This document shows positions 13,136 to 63,917 of a DNA stretch of 64,000 bases, in pieces. How positions within the stretch are numbered: position 1 is the first letter of the stretch; each line of letters starts with the position of its first letter. The stretch comes from an uncultured Thermoplasmata archaeon (GTDB lineage Archaea; Thermoplasmatota; Thermoplasmata; RBG-16-68-12): the NCBI GenBank assembly GCA_963768855.1, contig CAVYJM010000012.1, positions 1-64,000 on the forward strand, read 5' to 3'. Below the pieces are notes generated by a model. It saw nothing but the letters and a program-made list of their open reading frames with translations, had not been told where the DNA came from and made no database searches. A program made the translations under genes and the position numbers.

Positions 13136-13156
13136 GGCTCGCATCCATCCCATCCC

Positions 13157-13194: not shown

Positions 13195-13275
13195 ACCCTT
13201 ATTTTTCGACTTGGACGATCCACGCCAGGCTCGCGCGGAAAGGTTAAAACGAATCTGCTCGCTTGCGCCGAGCGC

Positions 13276-13346: not shown

Positions 13347-13353
13347 TGGGCCG

Positions 13354-47900: not shown

Positions 47901-47901
47901 G

Positions 47902-49666
47902 TCAGCGCGCCTCCAGCTTCTTGAAGTCCTCGTCCATCATCGTCAGCGTTTTCTCGAGCTCCTGGTCGAACTTCTCCTCGTACTTCACCCGGGTCAGGAG
48001 CTCCCGCGACTTGACGGAGGCGATGTCCTTGACCGGCACGTCCAGGGAGGCGGCTTTGCGGCCGAGGTCCGCGAACTTCTTGATCGAGGAGATCAGCTTG
48101 AACTGCCGCTCGGGAGGGCAGAACGTGTCCACGGGGTGGTACGCGTTCTGCTGCAGGAAGATCTCCCGGACCATCCGCGCCACCTCGAGGGTGAGTTGCT
48201 GCTCGGGGGGGAGCGCGTCCGCACCGACCAGCCGCACGATCTCCTCGAGCTCGGCCTCTTCTTGCAGGGTGCGCTGCGCCCACGAGCGCAGCTTGGGCCA
48301 CTCCTCGTTGACCTTCGTCCGGAACCACTCCTCGAGCTGCGGACCGTACAGGCTGTAGGAGGTGAGCCAGTTGATCGCAGGGAAGTGCCTCCGCGCGCGA
48401 AGGGCCGTGTCGAGGGCCCAGAACACCTTGACGATGCGGAGCGTCCCCTGGGTCACCGGCTCGGAGAAGTCGCCTCCGCTCGGGGACACGGCCCCGACGA
48501 CGCTGACGCTCCCTTCCCGGCCATTCAAGGTGGTCACGCGACCGGCTCGCTCGTAGAACTCGCTCAACCTGGCAGACAGATACGCCGGGAACCCTTCCTC
48601 GCCCGGCATCTCCTCGAGTCGGCTCGAGATCTCACGCATCGCCTCGGCCCACCGCGAGGTGGAGTCGGCCATGAGTGCGACGTTGTAGCCCATATCGCGG
48701 TAGTATTCCGCCAGGGTCATGCCGGTGTACACGGACGCTTCCCGTGCGGCGACGGGCATGTTACTCGTGTTCGCGATGAGGGCCATGCGATCCATGAGCG
48801 GAGCCCCCGTATACGGGTCCTCGAGCTTGGGGAACGTGGTCAGGACCTCCGTCATCTCGTTGCCGCGCTCGCCGCAGCCGATGTAGATGACCACCTGGGC
48901 GTCGCACCACTTGCTCAGTTGCTGCTCGCTCACCGTCTTCCCCGTCCCGAAGCCGCCGGGGATTGCGGCCGTGCCGCCCTTCGCGAGCGGGAACAGGAAG
49001 TCCATGACCCGCTGTCCCGTGATGAGCGGCACGGTAGGCATGAGCCGCTCCTTCGAGGGCCGGGGCCGGCGCACGGGCCACTCCTGCATCATCATGATCT
49101 TGCGGCCGTCGCTCAGCTCGACGACCGTCTCGTCGACCTTCATCTTCCCGGAGCGCACCCGGATGACCTTGCCGGACACATCCGGAGGGACCATGATCCG
49201 GTGCTCGACGTTCTTGGCCTCCTGCACGGTCCCGAGGACCTGGCCGCCCCGCACCGCGTCGCCTTCCTTGGCGAGGGGCTTGAAGTCCCAGAGTTTCTCG
49301 CGGCTCAGGCCCGGGGCGCGCACGCCGCGCAAGATGAAGTCGCCCATGACCTTCTGCAGGACGGGCAGCGGTCTCTGGACGCCGTCGTAGATGTTGCCGA
49401 GGAGCCCGGGTCCGAGCTCCACGGTCAGGGGCTTCCCGGAGTCCACCACGGGCTCGCCCGGGGCGGATGCCCGCGGTTTCCTCGTAGACCTGGATGACCG
49501 TCTTCTCGCCGCGGAGCTGGATGACCTCGCCCATCAGCTTCTCGGTGCCGACGTACATCACGTCGTACATCCGGGGCCGCAGGCCCGTCGCGGTCACGAC
49601 CGGACCCGCGACCCGCTGAATCTCCCCCGTCGCTTTCCCATGCTCCACCGTCGCGCTCAGCGCCAC
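47902..49666 (-). CDS. atpA: A/V-type ATP synthase subunit A (frameshift at 49457-49459)
   Basis: N-terminus (RVAGPVV...[12 protein letters not shown]) in track ORF 48761-49666, remainder ([38 protein letters not shown]) in 47902-49449; removing one G gives 587 aa. Confidence 0.95.
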
Positions 49667-49675
49667 TTCCTCACC

Positions 49676-49972
49676 TCACTTGAACAGATCAACGCCAATG
49701 GCCCGTTTCACCTTCGTGCGGAGGTCCTCGTCCTCCGCCGCGCCGACCCCGATCACGACGGGCCTCGCGGCGGACTCGAGCCGCCGGCGCATCGTGTTGC
49801 TCAGGGTCTTCATGTCGGCCGTGTCGAGCACGAGGATGCCGACGTCCGCGTCGTCGAGGACCTGCCCGATCTTCTTCTCGAGGTCCTCCCTCGTGGCGGA
49901 GATGGCTTTCCGCACGCCGACGAGCTTGAACCCCTGGACGAAGTCGTCCCGGCCCACGGCGGCGATCTCCAT
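49676..49972 (-). CDS. atpF: A/V-type ATP synthase subunit F
   Basis: MEIAAVGRDDFVQGFKLVGV...LRTKVKRAIGVDL; operon position. Confidence 0.93.
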   Translation of the reverse strand: MEIAAVGRDDFVQGFKLVGVRKAISATREDLEKKIGQVLDDADVGILVLDTADMKTLSNTMRRRLESAARPVVIGVGAAEDEDLRTKVKRAIGVDLFK

Positions 49973-49974
49973 CG

Positions 49975-51096
49975 TCACACCACCAGGAGTTCGCGGATCG
50001 TCTCGGTTGGAAGCCCGCTTTCCTTGCCGCGGGCGATGAGCCGGATGTTCGTTGCCTCTCGGTCCTTGAGGACGATGTAGTCCAGGATCGGGAGGATGGA
50101 GAGGGGATGGAGGTGCGCGTACCGCGCGGCCTCGAGCAGGTGGACCTTCTCCACCCGCCGCACGAGGACGCCGATCCCGGTCTCCTCGACTTTCTCGAGG
50201 GCGCCTGCGATGTCCTCGTAGTACGAGTAATCCTGGAGCCGGCGGACGAGGTTCACCTTGTCGAGGGTGACGAGCTCATGCAGCTCGTCCACGGTCATCT
50301 CGTCGCCTCCGTCCAGGAAGATCTCCCGGCCGAACTGGGCCTTCGCGGCCCAGGCGCGCAGGAGCGTCTTCAGGTTGATGATGTCGATCTCCCGCTGCAC
50401 GAACAGCCTCATCAGGCGGTTCGCGTCCGAGGACGGCGGGATCGACGCGAGGAGCTCGGCGTAATAGAGGCGCGACACGAGGTCCTCCCACTCGGACCAG
50501 TTCGCGACCTCGGATGGCTTCTTGCGCAGGATGGAGAGGGCCGCCGCGTAGATCGTCCCGTCGAGCGCCTTGAAGACGGCGTCGAGGCTCGGGGCCGCGA
50601 CGAGTTCGTCGAGGAACTCCGAACTGAAGCTCCCGGCGGGGACGAGGTCCTCCTCGACGTCCTCGGCGGACGCGCCGTACGTCCGTGCGCGCACGATCGT
50701 CTTGACGTTCTCCAGGTCGAAGCGGTCCAGGTAGCGGCCCACCATGGCCCGGAGGCTCCCCTCGGAGAAGTCGAAGATCCGGTTGTAGGTCTCGGCGAGG
50801 TTCTGCGAGACGGCCTTCTCAATCAGGTCCACACCGGAGTACTTCGCTCCGAGTGCGAGCATCTCCGCCTTGTACTCCCGCTCCCCGAGGAACCGTGCGA
50901 TCTCCGGCACTTCCATGAGCAGCAGCCGGTCGTACGTCTCCTTCGGCAGGAGATGGGCGCGTTTCGCCTTCACCCGTGCGGTCACGTACGGGTAGTTGCC
51001 CGATTCGATCGGAAGCCGGTCCCGGATCCAGCGGTACCGCCGGATCGCGCGGTCCCGGACGTCCTCCGTCACGCCTTGGAGACCCTCGAAGGCCAT
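49975..51096 (-). CDS. atpC: A/V-type ATP synthase subunit C
   Basis: YPYVTARVKAK, DLENVKTIVR, EIDIINLKTLLR, EATNIRLIARGK. Confidence 0.93.
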   Translation of the reverse strand: MAFEGLQGVTEDVRDRAIRRYRWIRDRLPIESGNYPYVTARVKAKRAHLLPKETYDRLLLMEVPEIARFLGEREYKAEMLALGAKYSGVDLIEKAVSQNLAETYNRIFDFSEGSLRAMVGRYLDRFDLENVKTIVRARTYGASAEDVEEDLVPAGSFSSEFLDELVAAPSLDAVFKALDGTIYAAALSILRKKPSEVANWSEWEDLVSRLYYAELLASIPPSSDANRLMRLFVQREIDIINLKTLLRAWAAKAQFGREIFLDGGDEMTVDELHELVTLDKVNLVRRLQDYSYYEDIAGALEKVEETGIGVLVRRVEKVHLLEAARYAHLHPLSILPILDYIVLKDREATNIRLIARGKESGLPTETIRELLVV

Positions 51097-51641
51097 AGGA
51101 TCTCGGCCACCTCACGCACGGAGTCGTTCCAAACATCTCGCAGGATCGATTCGTACCGCAGGTCGACGCGGCGCGTCCCGTCCGCGTTCTCGATAAGGAT
51201 GCCGCCTGCACACTCGATCGTCCCGGCGAAGGACCGCCCGGCCAGCTGCTTGACGAGCGCCTGGTCGTTCGCGTTGCAGTAGACCCGGCCGCCTGCTTTC
51301 CAGTCCTCCTCGTTCGCCTTCAGGAGGACGCGGAGGAAGTCCGCGTTCTCCCTCAGGGAGGAGAGGCGGGCCAGGGCGCGCTGGTACACCTCGTCGAGGG
51401 CTTCCTTCTGGGCCGTGAGCACGCTCTTCCGGGCCTCCAGCTCGGCGCGGGCGAGGTCCTGCACCTTCTTGCGCTGGGCCGCTTCCTCCCCCCTCTGGGA
51501 GGCCTCGCGGAGCATCTGGTCGCCTTCGGTGCGAATCTCCGAGAGCATGCGCTCTGCCTCGGCCCTTGCCTGGGCGAGAATCTCGCCCGCTTCGGTCTTC
51601 CCTTTGTCCAGGATGACCTGGACGAAGGTGTCCAGGGACAT
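51069..51641 (-). CDS. atpE: A/V-type ATP synthase subunit E
   Basis: Coiled-coil N-terminus, CAGGILIENADGTRRVDLRYES; operon position. Confidence 0.9.
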   Translation of the reverse strand: MSLDTFVQVILDKGKTEAGEILAQARAEAERMLSEIRTEGDQMLREASQRGEEAAQRKKVQDLARAELEARKSVLTAQKEALDEVYQRALARLSSLRENADFLRVLLKANEEDWKAGGRVYCNANDQALVKQLAGRSFAGTIECAGGILIENADGTRRVDLRYESILRDVWNDSVREVAEILWPSRVSKA

Positions 51642-51656
51642 CGCTCACCTAGCCGC

Positions 51657-51890
51657 TCAGCCCAATTGTCCGAGAAGCAGGAAGGCGATGACGAGGCCGA
51701 AGACGACAATGGTCTCAGGGATGACGACGAGCGGGAGAACCCGACCGAAGAGTTCGGGCTTCTCAGCGATCGCACCCACCGATGCCGCTCCAATCACTTT
51801 CTCGGCCCACGCTGTCGCCAATCCCGTCCCAAAGACGGTCAGGGCGGCAGCCATGGCCACCAGTCCTTGCGCTTCCGCTGCTACTGTCAT
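51657..51890 (-). CDS. atpK: A/V-type ATP synthase proteolipid subunit K/c (single hairpin)
   Basis: ATAWAEKVIGAASVGAIAEKPE...VIPETIVVFGLVIAFLL, with ion-binding Glu in PET. Confidence 0.95.
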   Translation of the reverse strand: MTVAAEAQGLVAMAAALTVFGTGLATAWAEKVIGAASVGAIAEKPELFGRVLPLVVIPETIVVFGLVIAFLLLGQLG

Positions 51891-51896
51891 GTGGTT

Positions 51897-53927
51897 TCAC
51901 ACCTCCGATTTCATTCTCTCGCCAAAGGGTCGGAACAACGTCCCGGTGCCCTTGTAAAACTTCAGGAAGAACTCCACGTAGTTGAGACGGATGGATTGGA
52001 TCGTCCCGGAGATCGTGCTGAGGAGGAAGATGAGCAGGTTCGACAGGGCCATGAGCACGATTCCGATGATGATGCCCACGATCGATCCCGGGATGATGAA
52101 GTAGTCCAGGGCGATCACATTGAGCGCGAAGATGACCGCCTCCTCCGCGACCCCGATGCCGGCGAGACGCGCATACGAGATCACGTTGGCCAGGAGGCCG
52201 AAGACCTCCATGAGATGCAGGCCGCCCTCCGTAACGAGGACGAGCCCAATTCCCGCGACGAGGAGGCCGATCGCCACATTCGGGATCTCGTTCGCGGCGG
52301 TGAATCCCATGCCGGACTCCAGGATCCCTCCCCGCGGAAACCACCCAAGGGGCCCGTTCCAGATCAGGTATCCCCACGTCCCCGGCCAGCGCGCGGCGCG
52401 GACGATGAGGACGACGTACAGGCCGAACAGGACGAGGAACCAGCCGAACTTGCCCACCGCGTGCTTGATGCTGTGGCGGATGTCGTCGAAGACGCCGATG
52501 ATGAAACCCGTGCCCAGGTGAAGGAAGGCCACGGACACGGACATGATGATGAAGTCGGGGACCTGGTGCAGCTTCTCGATGATGGGCGTGATCGGGAGGT
52601 TGAGGTGGAGGACGTTGTCGGACCAGTTGAAGAACTCCGCGGACCCGGCGACCGATCCGATGGGTGCGTGGAACGGGATGCCGAAGGCCTCCGCGAACAC
52701 GAAGGTCCCGAAGACCGTTGCCCAGAATCCGCCCCAGATGAACGCGACGAGAAGGTTCTTCCAGAAGTCCCACGGCCGGTTCTTCCAACGGCGGAGGAGC
52801 CAGATTCCGTAGGCCATCCAGATGATTCCATACCCGGCGTCGCCGACCATGATCCCGAACATCATCGGGAACGCGAGGGAGAACACGAGAGTCGGATCGA
52901 TCTCGCGGTAGCTAGGCGTGCCGAACATGTTCACGAGCATCTCGAACGGCTTCATCGGCTTCGGGTTCTTCAGCAGGACCGGGGGCTCCTGCGCCGCCTC
53001 TTCATGCTTGGCGGCCTTGTGGCCTTCTGCCTCGTCGAGTTCGGATACGAACGTGTCCGGGATCTTGCCGATCTCTTCCTTCAGCCGGGGGAAGGTCTCC
53101 TCGGGGACCCAGCCCTCCACGATGAAGGTGTGTTCCGTGACCGCGAACCGGAGGGGAGCCTCCGCCTTCTCGACCTCAATCTCGAGGTGTGCCTTCGCCG
53201 CAGCCAGGAACGCCGAGTACCGCTCGCGCAACGTGCCGAGGCTCTCGTCGATCTCGCTGAGGCGCTTCTCCCACCGCGCCCGCTCCGCGAGGGTTTCCGC
53301 GAGCGCGTCCCGGGGATGACCGCGGCCCTCCGGGATCGGCACGCTCGTGAAGCCCTGCTGGCCGAGGAAGTCGCGCACGGCGGCTGCGCCGGCCTTCGGT
53401 ACGAACAGGGCGATGAACCCGGGCACGGAGAACAGCTCGAACTCGGGCGTCACCTTGTCCAGCCCTGCAATCTCGCGCGGGGCCTTCCCAACGAGCACTT
53501 CGATGCTGTCATAGCCGGCATAGTCCTCGAAGGCGAGGGGGAGCTGCGCGAACGGGGTCAGCTCCTCGACCTTGTGACTCAATTCCTGCAGGAGGGCCTG
53601 GACCTTCTTCCGCGTCGCGTCCTGCTCGGAGATATTCAGCTCCAGGGAGAGGATCTTCTCGCGGATGTCGCCCGTGACCGGCTCGAGCGGCGCGGTCGTC
53701 TTCGGTTCCTGGACCTGGAGAACGTTCGCGATCGACCGGAGCTTCACGAGGACTTCGGAGGCCTCCGCGGCACGGGCGAGCGGCTTGCCGATCTCGAGGT
53801 CTTCGTGTCCGGCCGTGTGGTCGACGATGTGGAGAAGCTTGAGATCGTACAGGATCGTCACGGTCTTGTCAAGCGCGTCGCGCGGGCCCACGATCAGAGT
53901 CCGGGCCATCGGGGCGGGTCTAAGCAT
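51897..53927 (-). CDS. atpI: A/V-type ATP synthase subunit I/a
   Basis: VEGWVP, PPVLLKNP, PSYREIDPT, FGIMVGDAGYG, NVISYARLAGIG, QSIRLNYVEFF. Confidence 0.96.
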   Translation of the reverse strand: MLRPAPMARTLIVGPRDALDKTVTILYDLKLLHIVDHTAGHEDLEIGKPLARAAEASEVLVKLRSIANVLQVQEPKTTAPLEPVTGDIREKILSLELNISEQDATRKKVQALLQELSHKVEELTPFAQLPLAFEDYAGYDSIEVLVGKAPREIAGLDKVTPEFELFSVPGFIALFVPKAGAAAVRDFLGQQGFTSVPIPEGRGHPRDALAETLAERARWEKRLSEIDESLGTLRERYSAFLAAAKAHLEIEVEKAEAPLRFAVTEHTFIVEGWVPEETFPRLKEEIGKIPDTFVSELDEAEGHKAAKHEEAAQEPPVLLKNPKPMKPFEMLVNMFGTPSYREIDPTLVFSLAFPMMFGIMVGDAGYGIIWMAYGIWLLRRWKNRPWDFWKNLLVAFIWGGFWATVFGTFVFAEAFGIPFHAPIGSVAGSAEFFNWSDNVLHLNLPITPIIEKLHQVPDFIIMSVSVAFLHLGTGFIIGVFDDIRHSIKHAVGKFGWFLVLFGLYVVLIVRAARWPGTWGYLIWNGPLGWFPRGGILESGMGFTAANEIPNVAIGLLVAGIGLVLVTEGGLHLMEVFGLLANVISYARLAGIGVAEEAVIFALNVIALDYFIIPGSIVGIIIGIVLMALSNLLIFLLSTISGTIQSIRLNYVEFFLKFYKGTGTLFRPFGERMKSEV

Positions 53928-54246: not shown

Positions 54247-54638
54247 GGAGTCCAAGCCGCCGTAAACCCGGGCACTTTATAAGCGTTTGGTAGGTGTCCC
54301 GGAGTGCGTCGTCGCGGGCCCGTTGAGGCGGGCCGAACCGCCTCCCGCGAGCTATTTTTATCCAGCTTGGATTATGGAAATCCTGCCGCATCGATGCCTC
54401 GGTCGCAAGCCGCGCCGGACTCAACTCCGGGACGAATCCATGGCACGGAGAGGACGGCGGATGACGGCTCCATGAGCGCTCGCCGAATCGTGTTTGAGGA
54501 ACGCCGAAATCCGGAGACGCGGCGCGGTCGTAGCGCCGCGCCTTCGCGCTCGCCCAGCACAAGGTTTAAGTCTAATCCTTCTTTGTCGCAAACACCCGGA
54601 GACGCTCCATGGCGGCCCGGGCCCAAGAGGGTCGTGGG

Positions 54639-55262
54639 ATGAGGACCTTTGTACTGCTCGTAGCGGCAGTGATATTGAGCGTTTCCGCTCTTCCGATGAC
54701 TGCGACCCCGGCCACGGCAGCCTCAACGATCCCCGAACTCAAACTGACTATCCTCGGGGAGCAGAACGGGACCACGTACCAGTTCAGCCCGAGTCGGATC
54801 CTCCTGCCGCAGGTCCCGATCCTCATGAACATCACCTTCATCAACAACCAAACCGCCGGGAGCACGGTCCGGCACACCTTCTCGATCGACAGCTCGGGCG
54901 GGAAGACCATCCTCGACTACGACCTCGTCGCCCAGCAGAACGTGACGTTCGACATTCTGGTCAACTCGATGACGAACATCACGTGGAACGGGACTTCCTT
55001 CACGCCGGCCGTCGGGCCGACGGGCGGCATCAAGTTCTACTGCGTCTACCACCTCCCGGGCATGGTCGGTGAGCTGACCCTGGCGGGCGCCCCGTCCACG
55101 ACCGGCACGGAACAGAACGGCGTCTTCCTGCGGGCGTACTGGATCGGGATGATCGGGATCGCCGCGATGCTCGTGTGGATCGGCATCAGCTACTACATCA
55201 TCAAGGCCTCGACTCCCCGCTTCAAGGACAACCGCGAACACCTGAGGAAGGGTCTTCCGTGA
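54639..55262 (+). CDS. membrane-anchored type-1 blue copper (cupredoxin) protein
   Basis: Signal peptide, FSPSRI, RHTFSI (His), FYCVYHLPGMVGEL (C-x2-H-x3-M), C-terminal TM. Confidence 0.82.
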   Translation: MRTFVLLVAAVILSVSALPMTATPATAASTIPELKLTILGEQNGTTYQFSPSRILLPQVPILMNITFINNQTAGSTVRHTFSIDSSGGKTILDYDLVAQQNVTFDILVNSMTNITWNGTSFTPAVGPTGGIKFYCVYHLPGMVGELTLAGAPSTTGTEQNGVFLRAYWIGMIGIAAMLVWIGISYYIIKASTPRFKDNREHLRKGLP

Positions 55263-55552
55263 CCACGCTGATCCGGAGCGACGCGCCGCGACGGAGCGCC
55301 ATGGCGGCCGTCGCCATCGCGGGCCTCGTGATCGGCAGCCTCTGGTTCAGCGCCCTCAGCATCTTCCTCGCCCTCCAGGCCGCCAGCGGGGTCTACCCGA
55401 ACGACGTGAACGTCTACATGTCCCTCTTCCTCGGCATGGTCTTCGTCTGCGCGACGGTGGCCGTGGACATCTATCGCAGAGAGTTCATGCCCGACGAGCT
55501 CATCCATAAGATCCGGCGGCCCAAGCTGGTCCCGCCGAGGATGTTCCGCTGA
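55259..55552 (+). CDS. small 2-TM membrane protein in the Rieske/cytb operon
   Basis: GTG overlaps upstream TGA; two TM helices and a basic tail. Confidence 0.7.
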   Translation: MTTLIRSDAPRRSAMAAVAIAGLVIGSLWFSALSIFLALQAASGVYPNDVNVYMSLFLGMVFVCATVAVDIYRREFMPDELIHKIRRPKLVPPRMFR

Positions 55553-55560
55553 GGTGGTCC

Positions 55561-56343
55561 ATGAGCTGGGAGCAGGAGGAGAAGCAGAAGCGGTTCACCC
55601 GGCGCGAGTGGGTGAAGCTCAGCATGACCCTGGGCACGGTCGGTGCCCTGGGCGGCCTCGGCGGGCTCCTGAACGGGCAGCTCCTGCCGCCCCCGATCCA
55701 GCTCAGCGGCGAGGTCCGCGAGGGCCTGTACTACACGAAGTTCCCGACCCCGCAGTGGTGGAACGACAAGGACGGCACCCCGGTCAAGGCCGCGGACTTC
55801 AAGATCTGGGATGGGTCCACGGCGGTCTGGCGCGGGCTCTACCAGAACAACCAGCTCCTGCCGGGGACGGGCTTTCCATGCATCGTGATCCGGATTCCCA
55901 TCGACGCCCCGGAGTTCACCTTCCCGGATGCAGCGACCCTCACCGCCAACAGCATCGCGCCGCCGCCCGCGGGATTCGAGTACTATTACGAGGACAAGAC
56001 GACGGACACCCGCATCGTCGTGTGCTACGACCGTTGCGTCCACCTGTGCTGCTACCCGGGATGGCACGTCGTGACGAACCCGCCTCCTGGCCGGGACTAT
56101 GCGGTGCCCCCGCCGACCTACGATGTCTATCACGAGGACCCGATCTACTGCATCTGCCACGGATCGCAGTACGACCCGCTCCTCCTCACCGTGAACTTCA
56201 ATCCGCACAGCAACGTGAACTACATCGGGGCCGAGCGGGTCCACGGACCCGCCCCGCGGGCCCTCGTGGTGATCCCGGTGAAGAACGTGGGCGGCGCCCT
56301 GGTCGGGGGCATGCCGAACCCGAACTGGTACGTCTACTGTTGA
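55561..56343 (+). CDS. petC: Rieske [2Fe-2S] protein of a Rieske/cytochrome b complex
   Basis: Tat-like TRREWVK plus TM, box I CVHLCC, box II CICHGSQYD, GPAPRAL. Confidence 0.92.
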   Translation: MSWEQEEKQKRFTRREWVKLSMTLGTVGALGGLGGLLNGQLLPPPIQLSGEVREGLYYTKFPTPQWWNDKDGTPVKAADFKIWDGSTAVWRGLYQNNQLLPGTGFPCIVIRIPIDAPEFTFPDAATLTANSIAPPPAGFEYYYEDKTTDTRIVVCYDRCVHLCCYPGWHVVTNPPPGRDYAVPPPTYDVYHEDPIYCICHGSQYDPLLLTVNFNPHSNVNYIGAERVHGPAPRALVVIPVKNVGGALVGGMPNPNWYVYC

Positions 56344-56352
56344 GGTGGTGCG

Positions 56353-57129
56353 ATGGCGTCAGGAGCGTCCGGATCGTTGCGGGAGGACGGCCAGCGCACG
56401 GTCTTCGGCTGGTTCAAGACCCGCTTCCCGACCGTGCCGTGGGCCGACCTGACCCGGAAGGCGCTCGAGACGGACCAGCGGCAGATGCCGCGCAGCCACG
56501 CGGAGAAGTACGAGCTCAAGACGATCTGGTACTGGTACCCCCTCTACTGCCTCGGGGGCATCTCGTTCGTCGCGTTCATCATCCTCACCCTGACGGGGAT
56601 TATCCTGGGCTTCTTCTACGTCCCGAACGGCGCTTACGTGTACTCGGCGACGGGCGGGCTCACGAACGCCGCCTACGACTCGATGACGCGGATCATGACC
56701 CAGGTGCCCTTCGGCTACATCGTCCGGGGAATGCACCACTGGGCCGCGCACGTGATGATCGCGGCCGTCTTCCTGCACATGTGCCGCGTCTACTTCACGG
56801 GCGCGTACAAGAAGCCGAGGGAGCTGAACTGGCTCATCGGCGTCGTCCTTCTCCTGCTCACAATCCTGTTCGGGTACTCCGGCTACCTGCTCCCGGCCAA
56901 TGACCTGAGCGAGGGCGCCGCGAACATCGGGATCGAGATGACGCGGGCCTCCCCGCTCATCGGGGACCAGCTCGCGACGCTCCTCTGGGGCAGCACGAGC
57001 ACGCTCTCCGGCTACTACATCCTGCGGTGGTACTGGATCCACGTGTTCATCTTGCCGTTCGTCGGCGTGGGCCTGATGGTCGTCCACATGGCCCTCGTCT
57101 GGATCCAGGGCGTCGCGGAGCCGCACTGA
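56353..57129 (+). CDS. petB: cytochrome b6-like N-terminal subunit (split cytochrome b)
   Basis: YCLGGI, LTGIILGFFYVP, GYIVRGMHHWAAH...FLHMCRVYFTGAYKKPRELNW, FGYSGYLLP, WIH...VH: four heme His ligands. Confidence 0.93.
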   Translation: MASGASGSLREDGQRTVFGWFKTRFPTVPWADLTRKALETDQRQMPRSHAEKYELKTIWYWYPLYCLGGISFVAFIILTLTGIILGFFYVPNGAYVYSATGGLTNAAYDSMTRIMTQVPFGYIVRGMHHWAAHVMIAAVFLHMCRVYFTGAYKKPRELNWLIGVVLLLLTILFGYSGYLLPANDLSEGAANIGIEMTRASPLIGDQLATLLWGSTSTLSGYYILRWYWIHVFILPFVGVGLMVVHMALVWIQGVAEPH

Positions 57130-57137
57130 GGTGGGTC

Positions 57138-58448
57138 ATGGAAATCGAGAAGGTCAAGGAGAAGGTGATGGAGGGCCGGCCGGGCTTCACCCGGCAGTAC
57201 GGGCCGTCCCGCTCGGACCACCAGCCGGGAATCCCCTTCTTCCCCCAGGAGATCACCCGCGACGTGGTCGTCTCCTTCCTGCTCATCGCGATCCTCTTCT
57301 TCCTGACGGCCGCCGTCGTGCCCGCCCTGGGGCCGCCGCGGGCGGAGAACCTCTCCGAGCTCATCGTGCCGGACTGGTACCTCCTGTTCTCCTGGGGCCT
57401 CCTGAAGATCGGCGACATCTTCCCGAGCTTCATCCTCGGAGCGGGGACGCCCCTCGAGACCCAGTTCAACGCGGCGTTCTGGGGGGACATCCTCAGCGGC
57501 ATCCCGGTCATCTTCCTCCTGGTCCTGCCGTTCCTGGATCGCGGCCGCGAGGCGCGTCCCGCGAAGGCACCGTTCCGGTCCGCCCTCGGGATCTCCTTCC
57601 TGCTCGTCTGGACGTTCTCCGCCTCCCTGTACGCAATCCGCGAGGTCATCGAGCAGCGGTGGCAGAGCCCGAACGGGGCGACCCTGTTCCCGGACGACGC
57701 CCTGAAATGGCTCTTCGTCCTGCCCGCCGTCCTGGCCTTCTTCGCGACCTACATCGCGCTGCGGCGCCTCGGGTTCCAGCCGATGCGCAAGTGGCTTGTG
57801 CCTGCGACGGTCCTGCCTTTCCTGGTCGTGGCGGCGCAGTCCCTCCTCATCCTGTTCGTGCCCGGCTGGCTCGGCCCGGAGGTCATGCCGTACTGGCTTC
57901 AGCTCGCGATCGGCCTGCTCATCCTGTGCGCCGCGACCGGGGCGACCGCCCTTGCGGTCCTCGTCCTCCCCGAATCGACCGCGCGGCGCGTCGTGCATTG
58001 GGTCGGCGGGCTGACCCTGCTGGCCTTCGTCGGCTATCTGGTCGGCCTCTACTACACGAGCTACCTCGGATACATGTGGGTCGCCACGGTCCTCGACCCG
58101 AACTTCAACACGCTCATCCTGCTCCCCGGGTTCGCGGTCGTCACGGCGTGGTTCGGCCTGCGGCGGCCGTACAGCTCCTACGAGTACCTGCTCAATGAGT
58201 GCTACCAGTGCGGCAAGTGCCACACGGTCTGCCCCGTCACGAAGGTGGAGGACGACGCACTCGGCGGCCTGAACCTCGTCTACAACAGCTTCAAGAAGCA
58301 GCACGACGGCGTCCCACTCTGGACGTGCCTCGCGTGCGACGCGTGTAGCGCGGTGTGCCCGCTCGACATCAAGTACAGCGACTACATCCTCGAGGAACGT
58401 TCGAAGGTCCACGCCCGGGCGGCGGCGGACGGAGGTGAACCGAAATGA
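57138..58448 (+). CDS. petD: cytochrome b subunit IV (PetD-like) fused to about 5 extra TM helices and an HdrC-like 2x[4Fe-4S] domain
   Basis: PFFP, PDWYLL (PEWY variant), LVLPFLDR; about 8 TM in total; C-terminal CYQCGKCHTVCP and CLACDACSAVCP. Confidence 0.85.
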   Translation: MEIEKVKEKVMEGRPGFTRQYGPSRSDHQPGIPFFPQEITRDVVVSFLLIAILFFLTAAVVPALGPPRAENLSELIVPDWYLLFSWGLLKIGDIFPSFILGAGTPLETQFNAAFWGDILSGIPVIFLLVLPFLDRGREARPAKAPFRSALGISFLLVWTFSASLYAIREVIEQRWQSPNGATLFPDDALKWLFVLPAVLAFFATYIALRRLGFQPMRKWLVPATVLPFLVVAAQSLLILFVPGWLGPEVMPYWLQLAIGLLILCAATGATALAVLVLPESTARRVVHWVGGLTLLAFVGYLVGLYYTSYLGYMWVATVLDPNFNTLILLPGFAVVTAWFGLRRPYSSYEYLLNECYQCGKCHTVCPVTKVEDDALGGLNLVYNSFKKQHDGVPLWTCLACDACSAVCPLDIKYSDYILEERSKVHARAAADGGEPK

Positions 58449-59419
58449 TGACCACCGACGAGACGGAGTACGGGCCGGGGCGGACGATCCCCCACCCGAT
58501 GCTCTTCCGCGTGCTGGACAGCGAGGCGGAGGACACGACGGTCCCGGAGATCAAGGTCGAGCACAAGTCCGAGTTCGCGTACTACCCGGGCTGCGTCGAC
58601 TACTACGACATGGAGATGCAGTTCTCCCACGCAAACTACGGGGACACGAACCACGGGATCATCTTCGACTCCTCGATCAAGCTCCTGCGCGCGGTCGGGA
58701 TCGAGCCGATGATCCTGGACCGGTCCTTCATGAAGTGCTGCGGCCACGACCAGCTGTGGCAGGGCAAGGTCGACGTCTTCGAGCGGATGCGGGACTACAA
58801 CACGAAGATCATCCAGATGCTCGGCGTGAAGACCTTCATCACCTCCTGCGCGGAGGGCTACCGGACGTTCAAGCTCGACTACAAGCTGCCCGGCGTCCGG
58901 GTGGTGCACATCACCCAGATCCTCTACGAGCGCGGCCTGCGCGTGCCGCCCCAGGGGGACAACGCCAAGAAGATCCGTGTGGCCTACCAGGACCCGTGCC
59001 GATCCTGCCGCCAGATGCCCGTGGACCCCGTCTACGAGGAGCCGCGGGAACTCATCAAACGCGTCGACAACGCGGAGCTCGTCGAGCTCAAGACGTTCCG
59101 CGCGGACGCCCAGTGCTGCGGCGTCGCGCAGATGATGTACTGCAACGACAAGACGAAGGGCCTGACCCGCAAGCGGATGGACGAGGCCGACGAGGTCGGG
59201 GCGGACTACCTGCTGACGGCCTGTCCGAAATGCCTCACGCACTTCGGCTGCCTCCACCACGAGAACAAGTGGAAGCCCGGCGAGGAGCGCCAGAACTACC
59301 GGGTGATGGACATCACCCAGTTCCTCGCGGAGCGCCTCCCCGGCGACTACCCGTCCGGCAGCAACGTCGACGCGAAGCGCAAGGAGCCGCCGCTTCCGGG
59401 CCGGAAGGGAGGCTGGTGA
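58445..59419 (+). CDS. CCG-domain iron-sulfur protein (HdrB/HdrD/GlcF-like)
   Basis: YYPGC...KCCG...TSCAEG and YQDPC...QCCG...TACPKC: two CCG domains; overlaps upstream gene by 4 nt. Confidence 0.88.
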   Translation: MMTTDETEYGPGRTIPHPMLFRVLDSEAEDTTVPEIKVEHKSEFAYYPGCVDYYDMEMQFSHANYGDTNHGIIFDSSIKLLRAVGIEPMILDRSFMKCCGHDQLWQGKVDVFERMRDYNTKIIQMLGVKTFITSCAEGYRTFKLDYKLPGVRVVHITQILYERGLRVPPQGDNAKKIRVAYQDPCRSCRQMPVDPVYEEPRELIKRVDNAELVELKTFRADAQCCGVAQMMYCNDKTKGLTRKRMDEADEVGADYLLTACPKCLTHFGCLHHENKWKPGEERQNYRVMDITQFLAERLPGDYPSGSNVDAKRKEPPLPGRKGGW

Positions 59420-60030
59420 TGGCCGCTCCGGCCGCAACCGCCAACCCACCCCCCGCGACGCCTCCGCAGCCGGCGCCTCCGTCCAAGCCGGCGACACCCG
59501 CCCCCGCGGCGCCCCCGGCTCCTTCCGATCCGCTCGTGGCCTACTACCGTTCCGTGCGGCAGATGAACTGGGATCTCGCCAAGCAGCGTTTCAAGGACCT
59601 CGGCGTCAAGGCGCGGACCCAGGAGTACATCCGCGGCCGCGGCACGACCGCGATCGTGGACGACGAGGTCTGCATGGGCTGCATGCACTGCTTCGACAAC
59701 TGCGCCTTCGAGGCGATCAGCGCGCTCGACCGGAAGTTCTCCCTGCCCGACTACACGTACACGTCGCGCAAGGCGACGATCATCGTGGAGAACTGCGTCG
59801 GGTGCGAGAAATGCGCGATCGTCTGCCCCGTCGACGCGATCAACATGATCACGAAGTTCGGCTTCGAGAGCCGCGAGGGCAAGGTCGTCGAGATCGAGAA
59901 GCCCGCTCCGCCGAAGCCCCTCGCGCCCCCCGCGCCGCCCGCCGCGCCCCCGGCGAAGCCCGCGGGCCCCCCGCAGGCCCCGCCCAAGCCCGCCCCGCCG
60001 CCGACCCCCGCCCCGAAGGGAGGCGCCTAG
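59419..60030 (+). CDS. 2x[4Fe-4S] ferredoxin with Pro/Ala-rich termini
   Basis: CMGCMHCFDNC and CVGCEKCAIVCP; PAPP-rich N- and C-tails; TGATG coupling. Confidence 0.88.
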   Translation: MAAPAATANPPPATPPQPAPPSKPATPAPAAPPAPSDPLVAYYRSVRQMNWDLAKQRFKDLGVKARTQEYIRGRGTTAIVDDEVCMGCMHCFDNCAFEAISALDRKFSLPDYTYTSRKATIIVENCVGCEKCAIVCPVDAINMITKFGFESREGKVVEIEKPAPPKPLAPPAPPAAPPAKPAGPPQAPPKPAPPPTPAPKGGA

Positions 60031-60366
60031 GTGGCCTCCGCGGCCGAGGGATCCGGGACGAGCCCGGTCGTCAAGGCCCGGAAGGCGCCCCGCCTCACGT
60101 ACAAGCAGGAGATCCAGACGATCCAGAACATGCCGCGGGTCCAGCGCTTCATCGTCGTCATGAAGATCGCGGGCGTCTTCCTCGTCGCGATCGGCATTGA
60201 GGGGATCGTGACGGCCACGTGGTGGATGGCGGTCCTCTTCATCCCGCTCGGGGTGGTCGTGTCCATGATGCCCATCAAGATCCGCACGGACCGCTGCATC
60301 GCCTGCCGGACGCCTCTGGCGCCGGGGGCGTCGATTTGTCCCGCTTGCGGAGCTCCTCAGATGTAG
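60031..60366 (+). CDS. small 2-TM protein with C-terminal zinc ribbon
   Basis: Two TM helices, then RCIACRTPLAPGASICPACG. Confidence 0.7.
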   Translation: MASAAEGSGTSPVVKARKAPRLTYKQEIQTIQNMPRVQRFIVVMKIAGVFLVAIGIEGIVTATWWMAVLFIPLGVVVSMMPIKIRTDRCIACRTPLAPGASICPACGAPQM

Positions 60367-60478: not shown

Positions 60479-60991
60479 TTGACCACTGATACGTCGGACG
60501 CCATTCATCTCGCCGAACGGTGGAAGGGACTCGACCTCCGGTTGCTGCCGATCGACGAGGTGGACGTCCGGATCCTCAGCCGCCTCCGCGAGAACGCACG
60601 CCTCTCGAATGTGGAAATCGCCCGCGAGCTGGCGATTTCCGAAGCCACGATTCGCCGGCGGATCAAGGCCCTCGAGGAGAAGGGGATCATCCAGGGCTAC
60701 TCCTGCTACCTGAACTACCAGCTCATCGAGAATCCGGTCAAGGCGTACGTGAACCTGGCCCTGGAGCCTGGGCAGCGCGAGAGCGTCGTCGCGAAGGTGA
60801 CCGCCCACCCGCGTGCGGTCGCGGTCTACCGCGTCACGGGGGAGCACGACGTGCTGTGCGTCATGTTCTTCATCGACATGTCCGAGCTCCACGAGTTCCT
60901 GGACCGGTACCTGCAGATGCCGGGCATCCGCCACGTGGAGACCCAGATCGTCCTGAGCCCGTACAAGGGCGTCCCCTGGACCGGCGTTTGA
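60479..60991 (+). CDS. Lrp/AsnC family transcription regulator
   Basis: IDEVDVRILSRLRENARLSNVEIARELAISEATIRRRIKALEEKGII HTH; VTGEHDVL RAM domain. Confidence 0.92.
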   Translation: MTTDTSDAIHLAERWKGLDLRLLPIDEVDVRILSRLRENARLSNVEIARELAISEATIRRRIKALEEKGIIQGYSCYLNYQLIENPVKAYVNLALEPGQRESVVAKVTAHPRAVAVYRVTGEHDVLCVMFFIDMSELHEFLDRYLQMPGIRHVETQIVLSPYKGVPWTGV

Positions 60992-60994: not shown

Positions 60995-62425
60995 TCACGG
61001 CCGGACGAGCGGTTCGAGGACGTGCGCGGAGTCGAACCGCAGCTTGATCTCCCGCAGGAACCGCATCCGTTCGAGGTAGGCGGGATCCTCATTCCAGAGG
61101 TGCGCCAGGCGAGAGACGAGGACCGCTCCGGGGATCTTCTCGACGACCCGCACCACGCCCTTCGAGAGGTCGTACATGTGCGACCGGTCCTTGGGATGGT
61201 CGAAGAAGGGGAACGCGGAGAAGGTGCCGGACGCACGGAGGGTGCCGTAGAATCCGACCTTCGAGGCGACCTGCTGGCCGAGCGCCTTCAGGCGCGTCGC
61301 GAGGTCTCCCGCCGAGGCGGTCGGGAGTCGGACCTCCCCGACGAACAGGCTCCGCTCCGCGCGCTTCGCTGCCTTGTCGTACTCCGTCGCGGGGACGTCG
61401 AACGGGTTCGGGACCTCCGCGGACTTGACCTTGAAGCCGGCCAGCGCCGCGTCGAGCGCCTTCTCCCGGCCGGGGAGGCCCGAGGCGGTGCCCGCCAGGG
61501 CCACTTGGACCGTGAACGGGTCCGGGACGATTCCGGGCCGCAGAACGCCCGCCGCCACGGCGTCCGTGACGTGGACCCACGGGACGCGCTGTCCCGTCCG
61601 GGAGAGCTTGTCGAGTGCCGCGGAGAGCTTCGCCGGGTCATCGAAGGTGTAGGTGAGCGTCTTGCGGGCGGGAGGCTTCGGCGCCAGCCGCAGGGCCACC
61701 TCCACGGGCACGTAGAACTCCGCGGCGAGCGGGAGGGTCGCGTGGAGGACGTCGTATCCGGTCCCGTTGTTCGAGGCTGCCTCGAACCCGACCCGCGTCC
61801 GGTGGCCGTAGGCGGAGATCGTCCGCAGGGCGTTCACGTAGGCGCCGAACTCCCCGTCGAAGGCGGCGAGGGGCGCGTCCCCCCAGACCGCGTCGCCGAT
61901 TGCGAAGCCGAGCGGGACGGTCGGCACCACCGGAAGGAGGTGCCCCTTCGCGAGGGCTTCGTCGTACAGGCGCTTCCAAGGGAGGCCGACCTGCGCGATC
62001 GCCGCGTGTCCCTTCTCGGTGAGCTCGAGCCCGGTGTACGCAGAGAAGTCGACCTGCACGCCGCGTTGCTCGGGGACGAGCCAGTCGAACGTCAGGAGGG
62101 TGTGCGGCTTCACCGTGAGTCCGATCTCGCGGTCCTTCCCGACGCCGAGCTGCGTGCGGAAGTAGTTGTAGTCCGCGGCGTCGAGCCCGAGGTTCAGCGT
62201 GCTCTCGGAGCCGTTCAGGACCTGGATCAGCTTCCGCAGGTCCGCGTCGTCCTTGACCTTGACCGTAACCGCGGGCGTGCGCGTCAGGTCGGCGATGATC
62301 TCCCGCGGCAGGACCCGGTCGTTCCGAACGAACAGGGCGTGGATGAGCGCCTCGCGGATCATCTCCGAAAGGGCGGGGATCTCCGTGGCGGCCTCGATGT
62401 AGTTCCAGTCGCGCAGGAGTCCCAT
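60995..62425 (-). CDS. divergent FAD-binding PCMH-type (GlcD/GlcE-like) oxidoreductase subunit
   Basis: AQVGLPWKRL, GYDV, C-terminal IKLRFDSAHVLEP; the glycine-rich FAD loop is not recognisable. Confidence 0.6.
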   Translation of the reverse strand: MGLLRDWNYIEAATEIPALSEMIREALIHALFVRNDRVLPREIIADLTRTPAVTVKVKDDADLRKLIQVLNGSESTLNLGLDAADYNYFRTQLGVGKDREIGLTVKPHTLLTFDWLVPEQRGVQVDFSAYTGLELTEKGHAAIAQVGLPWKRLYDEALAKGHLLPVVPTVPLGFAIGDAVWGDAPLAAFDGEFGAYVNALRTISAYGHRTRVGFEAASNNGTGYDVLHATLPLAAEFYVPVEVALRLAPKPPARKTLTYTFDDPAKLSAALDKLSRTGQRVPWVHVTDAVAAGVLRPGIVPDPFTVQVALAGTASGLPGREKALDAALAGFKVKSAEVPNPFDVPATEYDKAAKRAERSLFVGEVRLPTASAGDLATRLKALGQQVASKVGFYGTLRASGTFSAFPFFDHPKDRSHMYDLSKGVVRVVEKIPGAVLVSRLAHLWNEDPAYLERMRFLREIKLRFDSAHVLEPLVRP

Positions 62426-62426: not shown

Positions 62427-63917
62427 CTAATCCGCCTCCTTGCCCCGCTCGTACGATCGCACGAACTTGTCCTGGGTCGGCTTGATCCTCCGCAAGAACG
62501 CGGCGAGGTCGAGACCGATTCGCATCGCCGGCGGCGGGATGGCCCGGATCCCCGGGAACTGGTACTTCGTCCACACCTCGATCGTCTTCCCCGGGTTCAC
62601 CTTCCGCTTCGGGTCGAAGACATCCTTGACGTACGCGGTGTAAAGGGCCGCGCGGCCGTGCATCGTCCGGAGGTTGAAGACCATGAAGAGGCCGAGCCCC
62701 ATCGGGTGGCCGCCGAGCTCGAAGGCGGCGTCCCCCATCTTCTTCACGTATCCGAGGGCCGTGCCGCCGCTGGGCACCGTGTCGTCCATCAGGACGTAGG
62801 GCGCGAGGATCACGGAGGTCGCGTCGATGGGGTGCGCCTGGACCGCGCCGTTGAGCTTCATCTTGCGGATCAGCTCCCGCGCTGTGTCGCAGGCCTCCGG
62901 GAGCTTCGCGAGCGGGACCACGTTGTTCGCGACGATCAGGCCGCGGCTCATCCGCCGCGCGCTGTACATCCGGAACCGGTGCTCCCAGAGCGCGTCGGGC
63001 TCCGCCTGGGGGCGCTTCGTCCCCTGGTTCTTCGGCGCGAGAGCGTCGAGGGTCTTCTCCTGGTCCGCGACGTCGTCCTTCGGCCCGGCGAGGCACACGA
63101 GGACCAGGTCGGCCGGCTCGGGCGTGTCCGTGCGCAGCGCCCTCTCGAACACGAAGTGATCCTTGTCGAGCAGGGAGATGTGGTACGCCTGGATCCCTGA
63201 GTCGACGACCGCCTGGAGGAAGGTCGCGGCCGCCTTCAGGGTCGGGAAGGCGTACGCGACGGGTTTCATCAGATCGGGTTTCGGGTCCAGCCGGAGGGTC
63301 GCGGCGGTCAGGACGCCGAGCGTCCCCTCCGCCCCGAAGAAGAGCGGCGTCAGGTCCGCGAACTGGCCCCCCGCGTCGCGCGCGAGCGCGGTGCGGAGGA
63401 CCCGGTTGTCCGGCAGGACGACCTCGAGGTCGCGGACGACCTGGCGGAGCGCTCCGTTGCGGAAGGCGCCGAAGCCGACCACGTCGCTGTTGATCGCGCC
63501 TCCCACCGTGCTCGCCATCGCGTTCGTCGGCATGGAGGGGAGGGTGAGTCCGCGCGCCTCGACGTACTCGGCGACGTCCTGCCAGGTCGCACCCGCCTCG
63601 ACGGTCACCGTGCGCGCCTGCGGGTCGAAGGCGCGGATCTTGTTCATCTTGCGGAGGTCGATCAGGACGCCGCCCCGGTTCGGGACCGATCCGCCGTACC
63701 AGCCCGTCCCGCCGCCCCGCGGGACGATCGGGAGGCCCGACTCGTCGCTGAGCTTCACGATCGCCGCGACCTCTTCCGTGGTCTGCGGCAGGACGACGAA
63801 GTCCGGGTAGAGGCGCCACTGCAGGAGCGCAATCTTGGGGAGGGAGGCGAAGTCGTGGCTGTAGACCATCCGGTCAAACTCGGTCCGGGAGACGCGCTCG
63901 GGACCGAGGGTGTTCAC
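62427..63917 (-). CDS. FAD-linked oxidoreductase (GlcD / D-lactate dehydrogenase family)
   Basis: PDFVVLPQTTEEV, VPRGGGTGWYGG, VTVEAG, TVGGAIN, FFGAEGTLGV, VFDPKRKVNPGK; frame stays open upstream (LANTDYAYRRL), so the true start may be near 63950-63958. Confidence 0.88.
   Translation of the reverse strand: MNTLGPERVSRTEFDRMVYSHDFASLPKIALLQWRLYPDFVVLPQTTEEVAAIVKLSDESGLPIVPRGGGTGWYGGSVPNRGGVLIDLRKMNKIRAFDPQARTVTVEAGATWQDVAEYVEARGLTLPSMPTNAMASTVGGAINSDVVGFGAFRNGALRQVVRDLEVVLPDNRVLRTALARDAGGQFADLTPLFFGAEGTLGVLTAATLRLDPKPDLMKPVAYAFPTLKAAATFLQAVVDSGIQAYHISLLDKDHFVFERALRTDTPEPADLVLVCLAGPKDDVADQEKTLDALAPKNQGTKRPQAEPDALWEHRFRMYSARRMSRGLIVANNVVPLAKLPEACDTARELIRKMKLNGAVQAHPIDATSVILAPYVLMDDTVPSGGTALGYVKKMGDAAFELGGHPMGLGLFMVFNLRTMHGRAALYTAYVKDVFDPKRKVNPGKTIEVWTKYQFPGIRAIPPPAMRIGLDLAAFLRRIKPTQDKFVRSYERGKEAD

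Follow-up and report, generated by a model that had tools for sequence, protein, structure and literature searches.

Can a Rieske/cytochrome b complex be wired to electron carriers of the cytoplasm? This question is raised by an operon of eight genes (g1 to g8) that lies on the plus strand, at positions 54609-60366, of a stretch of 64,000 nucleotides from an uncultured Thermoplasmata archaeon of soil (contig CAVYJM010000012.1 of assembly GCA_963768855.1, positions 1 to 64,000; hereafter the window). Rieske/cytochrome b complexes are usually regarded as closed Q-cycle machines. The original prediction, made from the letters of the window alone, was that these genes, from a cupredoxin to a zinc-ribbon membrane protein, form one coupled operon, and that its Rieske/cytochrome b core is wired to a cytoplasmic arm of iron-sulphur (Fe-S) and CCG domains. 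The operon is confirmed by its open reading frames (ORFs), all eight of which are present on the plus strand, by domain calls and by ligand motifs, and the wiring is supported by natural gene fusions, by the predicted topology and by a controlled docking model. The design is real and widespread in the phylum Thermoplasmatota: a conserved cytoplasmic Fe-S socket is found on the low-potential side of a Rieske/cytochrome b complex, by which complex III probably gains one more electrical contact on the inner side of the membrane. The reading that we favour is that the eight genes encode a single membrane complex and that electrons flow inward, from ferredoxin-level donors to haem bH/ci and the quinone at the Qi site; we give these two statements, taken jointly, a probability of about 0.5.

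The core of the operon is like the b6f complex and the b6c-type complexes of Firmicutes and heliobacteria. g4 (56353..57129) encodes a four-helix cytochrome b6-type subunit with two b-haem sites, which matches PF00033 (Cytochrome_B) at 1e-34; its best PDB matches are cytochrome b6 chains (1.5e-36), whose FYCLGG is aligned to its YCLGG. Three features are shared with these systems, namely the four haem-ligating histidines (H128, H142, H230 and H245, kept in 37-38 of 38 homologues), the spacing of 14 residues between the helix-D histidines, found also in the aligned PDB b6 chains, and the Cys of the CxGG motif (C66, kept in 37 of 38). The CxGG Cys of b6f cytochrome b6 binds haem ci/cn, and C66 is probably the site at which such a haem is covalently attached. 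Also shared are a separate subunit IV with a PEWY-type motif and a Rieske protein exported by twin-arginine translocation (Tat) with a CxCHGSxY box. The subunit IV is the PetD homologue encoded by g5 (57138..58448); it matches PF00032 (Cytochrom_B_C/PetD) weakly, at residues 74-154, and its Qo motif, which reads PDWY, is invariant in 21 sequences and is found in all the fused forms described below. The Rieske [2Fe-2S] protein is encoded by g3 (55561..56343). The Pfam Rieske model gives no match to it, and TIGR01416 and PDB Rieske chains match weakly; six residues of its ligand and disulfide motifs (C159, H161, C164, C197, C199 and H200) are conserved in 35/35 homologues, its boxes read CVHLCC and CICHGSQY, the latter being of the bc1/b6f type, and its twin arginine (R14-R15), invariant among homologues, points to a Tat export signal.

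A plastocyanin-like acceptor is a further likeness to the b6f complex. It is encoded by g1 (54609..55262, with an alternative start at 54639), which is predicted to be a membrane-anchored type-1 copper protein with an N-terminal signal or anchor and a C-terminal transmembrane helix (hydrophobic segments 9-35 and 171-200). It is without a Pfam match, its identity resting on a weak PDB match to plastocyanin and on its ligand motifs: the copper ligands are H89 and C145-x2-H148-x3-M, the first three being kept in 31/32 homologues, and FYCVYHLPGMVGELTLAG, the C-terminal copper loop, can be aligned with the copper loop of plastocyanin. None of the eight proteins matches a cytochrome c family of Pfam or NCBIfam, and the sole CxxCH string that they contain (C358-GK-C361-H362 of g5) is part of a cytoplasmic [4Fe-4S] motif. 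The place of a c-type cytochrome as high-potential subunit is thus occupied by the cupredoxin. Unlike the b6f and b6c-type complexes, the operon has no cytochrome f or c subunit, the eight helices of its subunit IV are followed by a cytoplasmic 2x[4Fe-4S] domain, and it encodes an additional CCG protein, a ferredoxin, a DUF7318 protein and a zinc-ribbon protein.

The cytoplasmic arm begins within g5 itself. Helices E-G of PetD are followed by five extra ones, which makes eight, and then by an HdrC-like domain with matches to Fer4_8/9/10 (a 4Fe-4S dicluster domain at residues 352-411), whose eight Cys (355, 358, 361, 365, 397, 400, 403 and 407) are invariant. The helices were counted on an AlphaFold2 monomer model, which served this use only (its pLDDT is 67 and its PetD part is poor), and a hydropathy scan agrees with the count. 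Furthermore, the basic loops alternate and fall on the predicted cytoplasmic side, and the shorter fused forms, with four helices, likewise have an even number. As the count is even and the N-terminus of PetD lies on the negative side (n-side) by homology, the Fe-S domain of g5 is placed by these predictions in the cytoplasm. The next gene, g6 (58445..59419), encodes an HdrB/HdrD-like protein with two CCG domains, which matches PF02754 in two stretches (1.3e-22) and whose top NCBIfam match is the C-terminal half of TfrB; nine of its Cys (50, 98, 99, 135, 185, 224, 225, 260 and 263) are kept in 37/37 homologues. It is followed by g7 (59419..60030), an 'RnfB-like' ferredoxin subunit of the 2x[4Fe-4S] type, whose N-terminal helix is conserved; it matches Fer4_21 and Fer4_7, and its eight Cys are found in 32/32 homologues. 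Against the rnfB models of NCBIfam, the ferredoxin part of g7 alone matches, far below cut-off. Its core (residues 35-160) is conserved, and its Pro/Ala-rich tails (59419-59520 and 59900-60030) vary in length and sequence, by up to ~150 extra residues between relatives; a large disordered C-terminal region is likewise found in the structure of mycobacterial EtfD.

The Fer4 domain of g5 and the CCG domains of g6, taken as one split pair, can be aligned over their full extent with HdrD-like proteins that consist of a single chain. The operon is thereby like HdrDE and DsrMK, in which a dihaem b membrane part precedes a 2x[4Fe-4S] domain and two CCG domains. It is unlike both in its membrane partner, which is cytochrome b6/PetD and not a NarI-type HdrE or DsrM, and unlike HdrDE in that HdrD is divided between two genes, PetD carrying its ferredoxin half, and in that the first CCG motif is without its bridging Cys. 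The HdrD/EtfD module of non-cubane clusters is thus extended to a third kind of membrane partner.

The relatives of the operon were scanned in one genome per species, and the g5 protein is found in 40 loci of metagenome-assembled genomes (MAGs) of Thermoplasmata, chiefly from soil, wetland and sediment. All 40 loci contain the same eight genes in the same order, as far as each contig extends. Synteny had been put forward with the prediction as a way to check it, and it holds in these ~40 related loci; so constant an order is far beyond what chance could explain. Conservation is highest in g6, with an identity of 77-96% across the order against 67-97% for the cytochrome b, and the corresponding values are 50-93% for g5 and 31-91% for the Rieske protein. 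Each predicted metal ligand is conserved in 30-38 homologues. The nearly invariant regions of g5 are its PetD part, its PDWY motif and its Fe-S domain; conservation is poor in helices 5-8, which resemble a linker.

More distant relatives show the parts of the arm joined in other ways. A profile-free, exhaustive search of 1.84 billion representative proteins gives 187 relatives of g5 in total, and PetD, Fer4 and the two CCG domains are found in a single chain in six proteins (P0149, P0150, P0157, P0158, P0160 and P0153), with lengths of 543-626 aa and of 932 aa. In a phylum-wide genome sample, the coded families f56 and f38 likewise have the PetD and Fe-S parts in one frame of ~940 aa; one Poseidoniales-like locus contains, in this order, genes for a 282-aa protein, DUF7318, a 283-aa protein, cytochrome b6 and a 942-aa PetD-Fer4-CCG protein, and the cytochrome b relatives of f56 and f38 (55-59% identity) are labelled Poseidoniales and Thalassarchaeum in public records. 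The split form, with PetD-Fer4, a CCG protein and a polyferredoxin, is found on marine contigs and in family f53. A g7-like ferredoxin follows the fusion in f38, f53, f55 and f61, and lies 14 kb away in one f56 genome. In the sample, PetD is matched in 144 of 401 Thermoplasmatota genomes, and about half of these, in the families examined, have the arm; it is widespread in the sampled Poseidoniales-like families, being present in 36 of 36 in f38. A different context is found in two loci (L054, at 4729-13487, and L055), where genes for a multihaem c protein, a 77-aa protein, a Rieske protein and a cytochrome b precede a 543-aa PetD-Fer4-CCG fusion, HdrC, HdrB, HdrA and MvhD. The Rieske/cytochrome b complex is there apparently coupled to a flavin-based bifurcating Hdr; the host of L054 (G618) is a 2.1-Mb archaeal MAG with 24 CCG-domain matches, in which McrA was not found.

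The way in which g7 would join the arm was addressed with a model of the C-terminal domain of g5 together with g6 and g7, the last being the scored partner. g7 reaches an ipSAE of 0.85, whereas none of the three controls scores above 0.00; among solved complexes 58 of 80 attain this mark, and among mismatched pairs 2 of 110 do. At least 60% of the contacts are shared by the three runs, and the pLDDT of the partner is at least 73. In the model, g7 contacts g6 alone: its N-terminal helix (37-67) and its first-cluster Cys lie against the N-terminal CCG domain and C233/C269, C85-C95 and C136 face C50, C233 and C269 of g6, and the face of g6 near both CCG clusters is covered. The model supports, but does not show, that g7 binds g6. 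All these results, that is the natural single-chain fusions, the cytoplasmic topology and the docking of g7 on g6, make the physical association of PetD-Fer4, the CCG protein and the ferredoxin well supported.

Association could still mean less than electron transfer. The Fe-S/CCG proteins could be co-encoded with the complex, and perhaps attached to it, for assembly, regulation or redox sensing, in which case they would not form a through-wire to the b haems. The poor conservation of helices 5-8 of g5 and the incomplete first CCG motif of g6 would fit such a role, which we nevertheless consider decidedly unlikely: no part of the operon is better conserved than the Fe-S domain of g5 and the full length of g6, the cluster ligands are invariant, and the repeated, independent fusion states, together with the co-variation of the arm with the CxGG Cys, point to a redox function that is tied to the n-side haems.

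This co-variation is seen across the phylum. The CxGG Cys is present in nine of the ten arm-bearing lineages, namely the order of the window itself, L049, f38, f56, f52, f55, f61, the marine L051 and L054, and it is missing in six of the seven families that have PetD only (missing in f40, f48, f57, f62, f63 and f73, present in f60). The genome of the window contains a second cytochrome b, unsplit, which is also without this Cys. The lineages that were compared are non-independent, and the association is not a statistical test; we take it as a suggestive association between the arm and the haem-ci Cys. As the arm co-varies with this Cys, these archaea lend themselves to a natural experiment on the function of haem ci/cn, a question that has accompanied work on the b6f complex ever since this haem was discovered.

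The CCG motifs of g6 bear on whether it would conduct electrons or use them. Catalysis by HdrB depends on two bridging Cys, Cys81 and Cys234, which are the last Cys of each CxxC (PMC13083937). The C-terminal motif of g6 has all five Cys (C185, C224, C225, C260 and C263), the Cys234 equivalent included, and the N-terminal motif has four Cys of five (C50...C98C99...C135-A-E-G), the last being replaced by Gly. This Gly stands at the position of Cys81 across the order of the window and in the L049 lineage; the residue is Cys in L054/P0150, in P0160, in family f53 and in Methanosarcinales proteins. The g6 model (pLDDT 80) has as its top PDB match in Foldseek the EtfD of M. smegmatis (9ojn, E 2.8e-12, TM 0.64 by query), followed by a LutA model and then by HdrB chains. 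The clusters of EtfD are fully ligated relays (PMC13083937), and a preprint on EMO reports that the electron-transfer flavoprotein (ETF) reduces non-cubane clusters that are pure electron relays, with a variable distal cluster. In the aerobic clade, the g6 module thus looks like a wire and not like a disulfide-cleaving site, since the Cys81 equivalent is Gly, since the enzyme closest to it in fold, EtfD, serves for electron input, and since the non-cubane clusters of EMO can be pure relays.

The arm is like two ETF:menaquinone oxidoreductases, EtfD 9ojn and the Syntrophus EMO, in its order, from a cytoplasmic donor through CCG relays and cubane clusters to haem b and the quinone, and in the variability of the distal cluster site. 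It is unlike EtfD in its membrane domain and in the way in which its ligands have changed: the first cluster (D1) of mycobacterial EtfD has the second Cys of the CC pair replaced and the CxxC kept (PMC13083937), whereas g6 keeps the CC pair (C98, C99) and loses the last Cys of the CxxC. It also differs by an extra ferredoxin subunit, docked in the model at the site through which ETF would approach.

The original prediction had left two directions side by side, the reduction of a disulfide or persulfide with bifurcated electrons and the entry of electrons from cytoplasmic donors. In the first case the wire would act as an output of the Q cycle, in the manner of HdrDE and DsrMK, quinol would be oxidised at Qo, one electron would pass to the Rieske protein and the cupredoxin, and the low-potential electron would leave through haems bL and bH (and ci) for the Fe-S wire and for an acceptor at the CCG clusters or beyond them, namely a disulfide, a persulfide or ferredoxin. 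HdrED and DsrMK share the order of modules (b haems, 2x[4Fe-4S], CCG), outside the clade g6 has its closest homologues among the HdrD-like, one-chain proteins of Asgard archaea and Methanosarcinales (35-43% identity over a full-length alignment), and the complete C-terminal motif of g6 would suit such a role. The Rieske/cytochrome b complexes of anammox bacteria are moreover proposed to pass bifurcated electrons to NAD(P) (PMC12954380). The L054/L055 fusion, which retains both bridging Cys and precedes the HdrC-HdrB-HdrA-MvhD genes, suggests genuine Hdr-type chemistry, and an outward, HdrDE-like direction may well apply in an anaerobe of the L054 type. For the clade of the window, however, such an output is unlikely. 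The Cys81-equivalent bridging ligand is Gly there; McrA (PF02249) is not found in the genome of the window, which is 93.6% complete and in which controls match, and the host, in which the cluster adjoins an A-type ATP synthase operon, is an aerobe-type heterotroph with no sign of coenzyme M/coenzyme B metabolism. The hosts of the cluster are aerobic heterotrophs, for which a quinol-driven reduction of disulfides or ferredoxin has no evident use (Diamond et al., 2022; Tully et al., 2019), the electron would have to be moved to the negative side, against the membrane potential, and the modelled ferredoxin covers the N-terminal CCG side, where the substrate would be expected. The sequences thus lean to electron entry, and away from true heterodisulfide chemistry in this clade, given the Gly, the aerobic host, the missing McrA and the EtfD-like fold.

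Inward flow is favoured because the Cys81 equivalent is lost, because the best fold match is EtfD and because the CxGG Cys tracks the arm across families. The following mechanism can be proposed. The core would be a b6f-type quinol oxidase, made of the Tat-exported Rieske protein, cytochrome b6 with haems bL and bH and a probable covalent haem ci, and the subunit IV with its PDWY motif. The high-potential electron would go to the membrane-anchored cupredoxin and not to a c-type cytochrome. At the side facing the cytoplasm, the five extra helices would lead from subunit IV to the HdrC-like 2x[4Fe-4S] domain, to which g6, the equivalent of HdrB, would bind, g6 in turn binding the ferredoxin subunit g7. 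A wire of about six Fe-S clusters would thus lead from the cytoplasm to the region of haem bH/ci and Qi, and reduced ferredoxin, or another low-potential cytoplasmic donor, could deliver electrons through g7, g6 and the Fe-S domain of g5 to haem ci/bH and the quinone at Qi. Complex III would then double as a donor:quinone reductase and a quinol:cupredoxin oxidoreductase. Sequences and models show which genes are present, their ligands, the fusions, the topology and the modelled docking of g7 on g6; we infer that the cofactor sites are filled, that the first cluster touches haem ci/bH, which way electrons flow and where they come from.

A ferredoxin-driven cyclic flow through haem cn of the b6f complex is an arrangement that has long been proposed. 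One interesting possibility is that the operon encodes a natural ferredoxin:quinone reductase inside a b6f-type complex, with a six-cluster wire to a covalent haem ci at Qi; we hold this more specific version tentatively, at somewhat under even odds. If true, it would be a hard-wired archaeal counterpart of the debated ferredoxin-to-haem-cn cyclic route, and both soil Thermoplasmata and Poseidoniales, which are abundant worldwide, would have it as their main complex III.

Several points weigh against the inward reading. The direction of flow cannot be read from sequence, and HdrDE and DsrMK, with the same order of modules, run the opposite way. The tenth arm-bearing lineage, family f53, reads YSLGG, Ser replacing the haem-ci Cys. 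The C-terminal motif of g6, with all its five Cys, does not exclude some thiol chemistry, and the docking score of g7 may partly reflect a likeness to the solved HdrABC and EtfD assemblies. Finally, Diamond et al. (2022, PMC9038741) propose that ferredoxin is oxidised by the complex I of these genomes, which has no NuoEFG, so that a second entry for ferredoxin is not obviously needed.

Other donors than ferredoxin were considered. The arm could be an ETF:quinone oxidoreductase module of the EtfD/EMO type, which would receive electrons of amino-acid and fatty-acid oxidation from EtfAB. The top structural match of g6 speaks for it, as do the EtfAB genes that are present in the genome of the window and in Poseidoniales-like genomes; it is also favoured by the search for EtfAB and ETF-QO, made in the genome of the window and in three other arm-bearing genomes, which gave no ETF-QO (PF05187) above cut-off. 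A dedicated protein seems, however, to be at hand. In the genome of the window, etfB and etfA (C10:48636-50406, plus strand) lie 2.5 kb from the gene for a 698-aa EtfD-like protein (C10:52946-55042, minus strand), with a QmoC/NarI-like membrane part, a 2x[4Fe-4S] domain and two CCG domains, which looks like an archaeal ETF:quinone oxidoreductase of the EtfD/EMO type. A counterpart of 674 aa directly adjoins etfBA in another genome (G489:C9), and two Poseidoniales-like genomes (G333 and G445) each have a second CCG protein of ~680 aa. Moreover, the CC-to-CT change of cluster D1 that is typical of EtfD (PMC13083937) is not seen in g6, and in the model the side of g6 adjacent to its two CCG clusters is taken up by g7. 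ETF was therefore rated an unlikely donor, as a separate EtfD-like gene adjoins etfBA, and we regard this explanation of the arm as very improbable indeed.

A 2-hydroxyacid of the D-lactate or glycolate type could alternatively be the source of electrons. Two genes for flavin adenine dinucleotide (FAD) oxidases lie convergently downstream of the operon, on the minus strand: FADa (62427-63917) is GlcD-like, with PF01565 and PF02913 matches and TIGR00387 glcD at 6e-52, and FADb (60995-62425) is a degenerate paralogue without a Pfam match, as GlcE often is. The Fer4+CCG module would then act as the GlcF-type partner of this GlcD/GlcE-like pair, GlcF being itself a protein with Fer4 and two CCG domains, and would pass the electrons on to complex III. 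Related Thermoplasmata loci that reach at least ~1 kb past g8 number 30, and 28 of them have the pair directly downstream in convergent orientation (L039 and L040 are the two others); it is also downstream in the more distant L049, although its other neighbours differ. On the other hand, it forms a separate, convergent transcription unit; it is not beside the cluster in L039, in L040, in marine loci (L050 among them) or in Poseidoniales-like loci, though the arm is kept there; and the genome of the window encodes another GlcF/TfrB-like protein, of 388 aa, 6 kb from another FAD_binding_4 gene. Such a docking seems to us a poor candidate for the function of the arm. The pair is a conserved convergent neighbour, and its membership in the complex is not shown.

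Extra redox modules on a Rieske/cytochrome b complex are not without precedent. The statement of the original prediction that canonical complexes have only Rieske, cytochrome b and cytochrome c or f subunits is overstated, as the anammox complexes and others carry extra redox subunits. The Rieske/cytochrome b complexes of Kuenenia provide a precedent both for additional redox modules, cytoplasmic or periplasmic, and for proposals of a low-potential branch that leaves the Q cycle (PMC12954380); the extra subunits are there a flavoprotein and multihaem c types, and not an HdrD-like Fe-S/CCG wire on subunit IV. The caution that the cluster might already have been reported was also justified. In Diamond et al. 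(2022, PMC9038741), "hdrD-like and rnfB-like" genes are noted in passing beside the complex III of Angelarchaeales, an entry of ferredoxin is suggested, and the same blue copper protein as g1 is found upstream of the Rieske gene in 23 of 30 loci. Tully et al. (2019) describe an 'MGII-specific complex III' in marine group II (MGII), with cytochrome b and Rieske genes, without canonical bc1 and with an orphan RnfB, RnfACDEG being missing. The Angelarchaeales and MGII-specific complexes III are the same gene cluster or family as our operon. These two papers are the only ones touching the cluster that were found, and their passages that were read describe neither the fusion of PetD with Fer4 nor PetD-HdrD forms of a single chain, nor the haem-ci motif with its link to the arm, nor the ligand pattern. 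The cluster is likewise not described in the available parts of Arshad 2015, Ou 2022, Dibrova 2017 and a 2026 Methanoperedens paper. The design is a combination of two known kinds, and the PetD fusion, the haem-ci link and the ligand pattern are new with respect to the literature found. It bears on the respiration of a large share of ocean and soil archaea, since the arm is widespread in Poseidoniales-like families and since MGII is reported to be without canonical bc1.

The coupling of the eight genes is visible at their junctions, which all overlap or leave a gap of at most 9 nt. g1 and g2 overlap by GTGA, g5 and g6 by ATGA, g6 and g7 by 1 nt, and g7 and g8 directly abut. At the three consecutive junctions g2/g3, g3/g4 and g4/g5, the stop codon is fused to the Shine-Dalgarno-like TGAGGTGG (55549-55560, 56340-56352 and 57126-57137), whose recurrence suggests a translational coupling of neighbouring genes. 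As the G+C content of the window is 62-70%, numerous spurious ORFs overlie the genes of the operon in other frames, and the true frames were picked out by family matches and conservation. Upstream, a single TATA-like hexamer is found at 54276, ~330 nt 5' of g1. In a soil metatranscriptome run, contigs from relatives are 90-95% identical to g4-g8, and none of the listed pieces bridges two genes by at least 31 nt; these contigs were left out of the evidence, as contigs cannot prove transcripts and DNA carry-over is possible.

Two small membrane proteins complete the operon. g8 (60031..60366) has two hydrophobic helices and a C-terminal, four-Cys zinc ribbon, for which Pfam matches are weak and below cut-off; its Cys (C89, C92, C103 and C106) are present in 30/31 homologues, and its position is constant in all related loci and in L049. 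g2 (55259..55552), whose most likely start at 55259 overlaps the stop of g1 and gives 97 aa, has two hydrophobic segments and matches PF24002 (DUF7318) at 6.6e-10, above cut-off, and its position is constant in all related loci and in one Poseidoniales-like locus. Among 14 control genomes, the sole match to PF24002 is in Haloferax volcanii. A cytochrome b with YCLGG from a 'Halobacteria archaeon' has 53% identity to g4. DUF7318 and this cytochrome b are hints that a haloarchaeal pet cluster is related to the Thermoplasmata operon.

Some features lie outside the unit. The second cytochrome b of the genome belongs to another Rieske/cytochrome b cluster on the minus strand of contig C21 (77378-80553; 7381-10553 in L057), which encodes an unsplit, 430-aa cytochrome b with both N and C parts, a 220-aa Rieske protein and a 383-aa EB_dh, a haem b protein like the gamma subunit of ethylbenzene dehydrogenase. 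A gene for an Lrp/AsnC-family regulator (60479-60991, plus strand) stands between the operon and the FAD-oxidase pair; it was rejected as part of the unit, being present in only ~8 related loci. Upstream of g1 and divergent from the operon, an A-type ATP synthase operon (46500-53927, minus strand) encodes subunits A, B, C/AC39 and I, and the I subunit holds the same position in most related loci.

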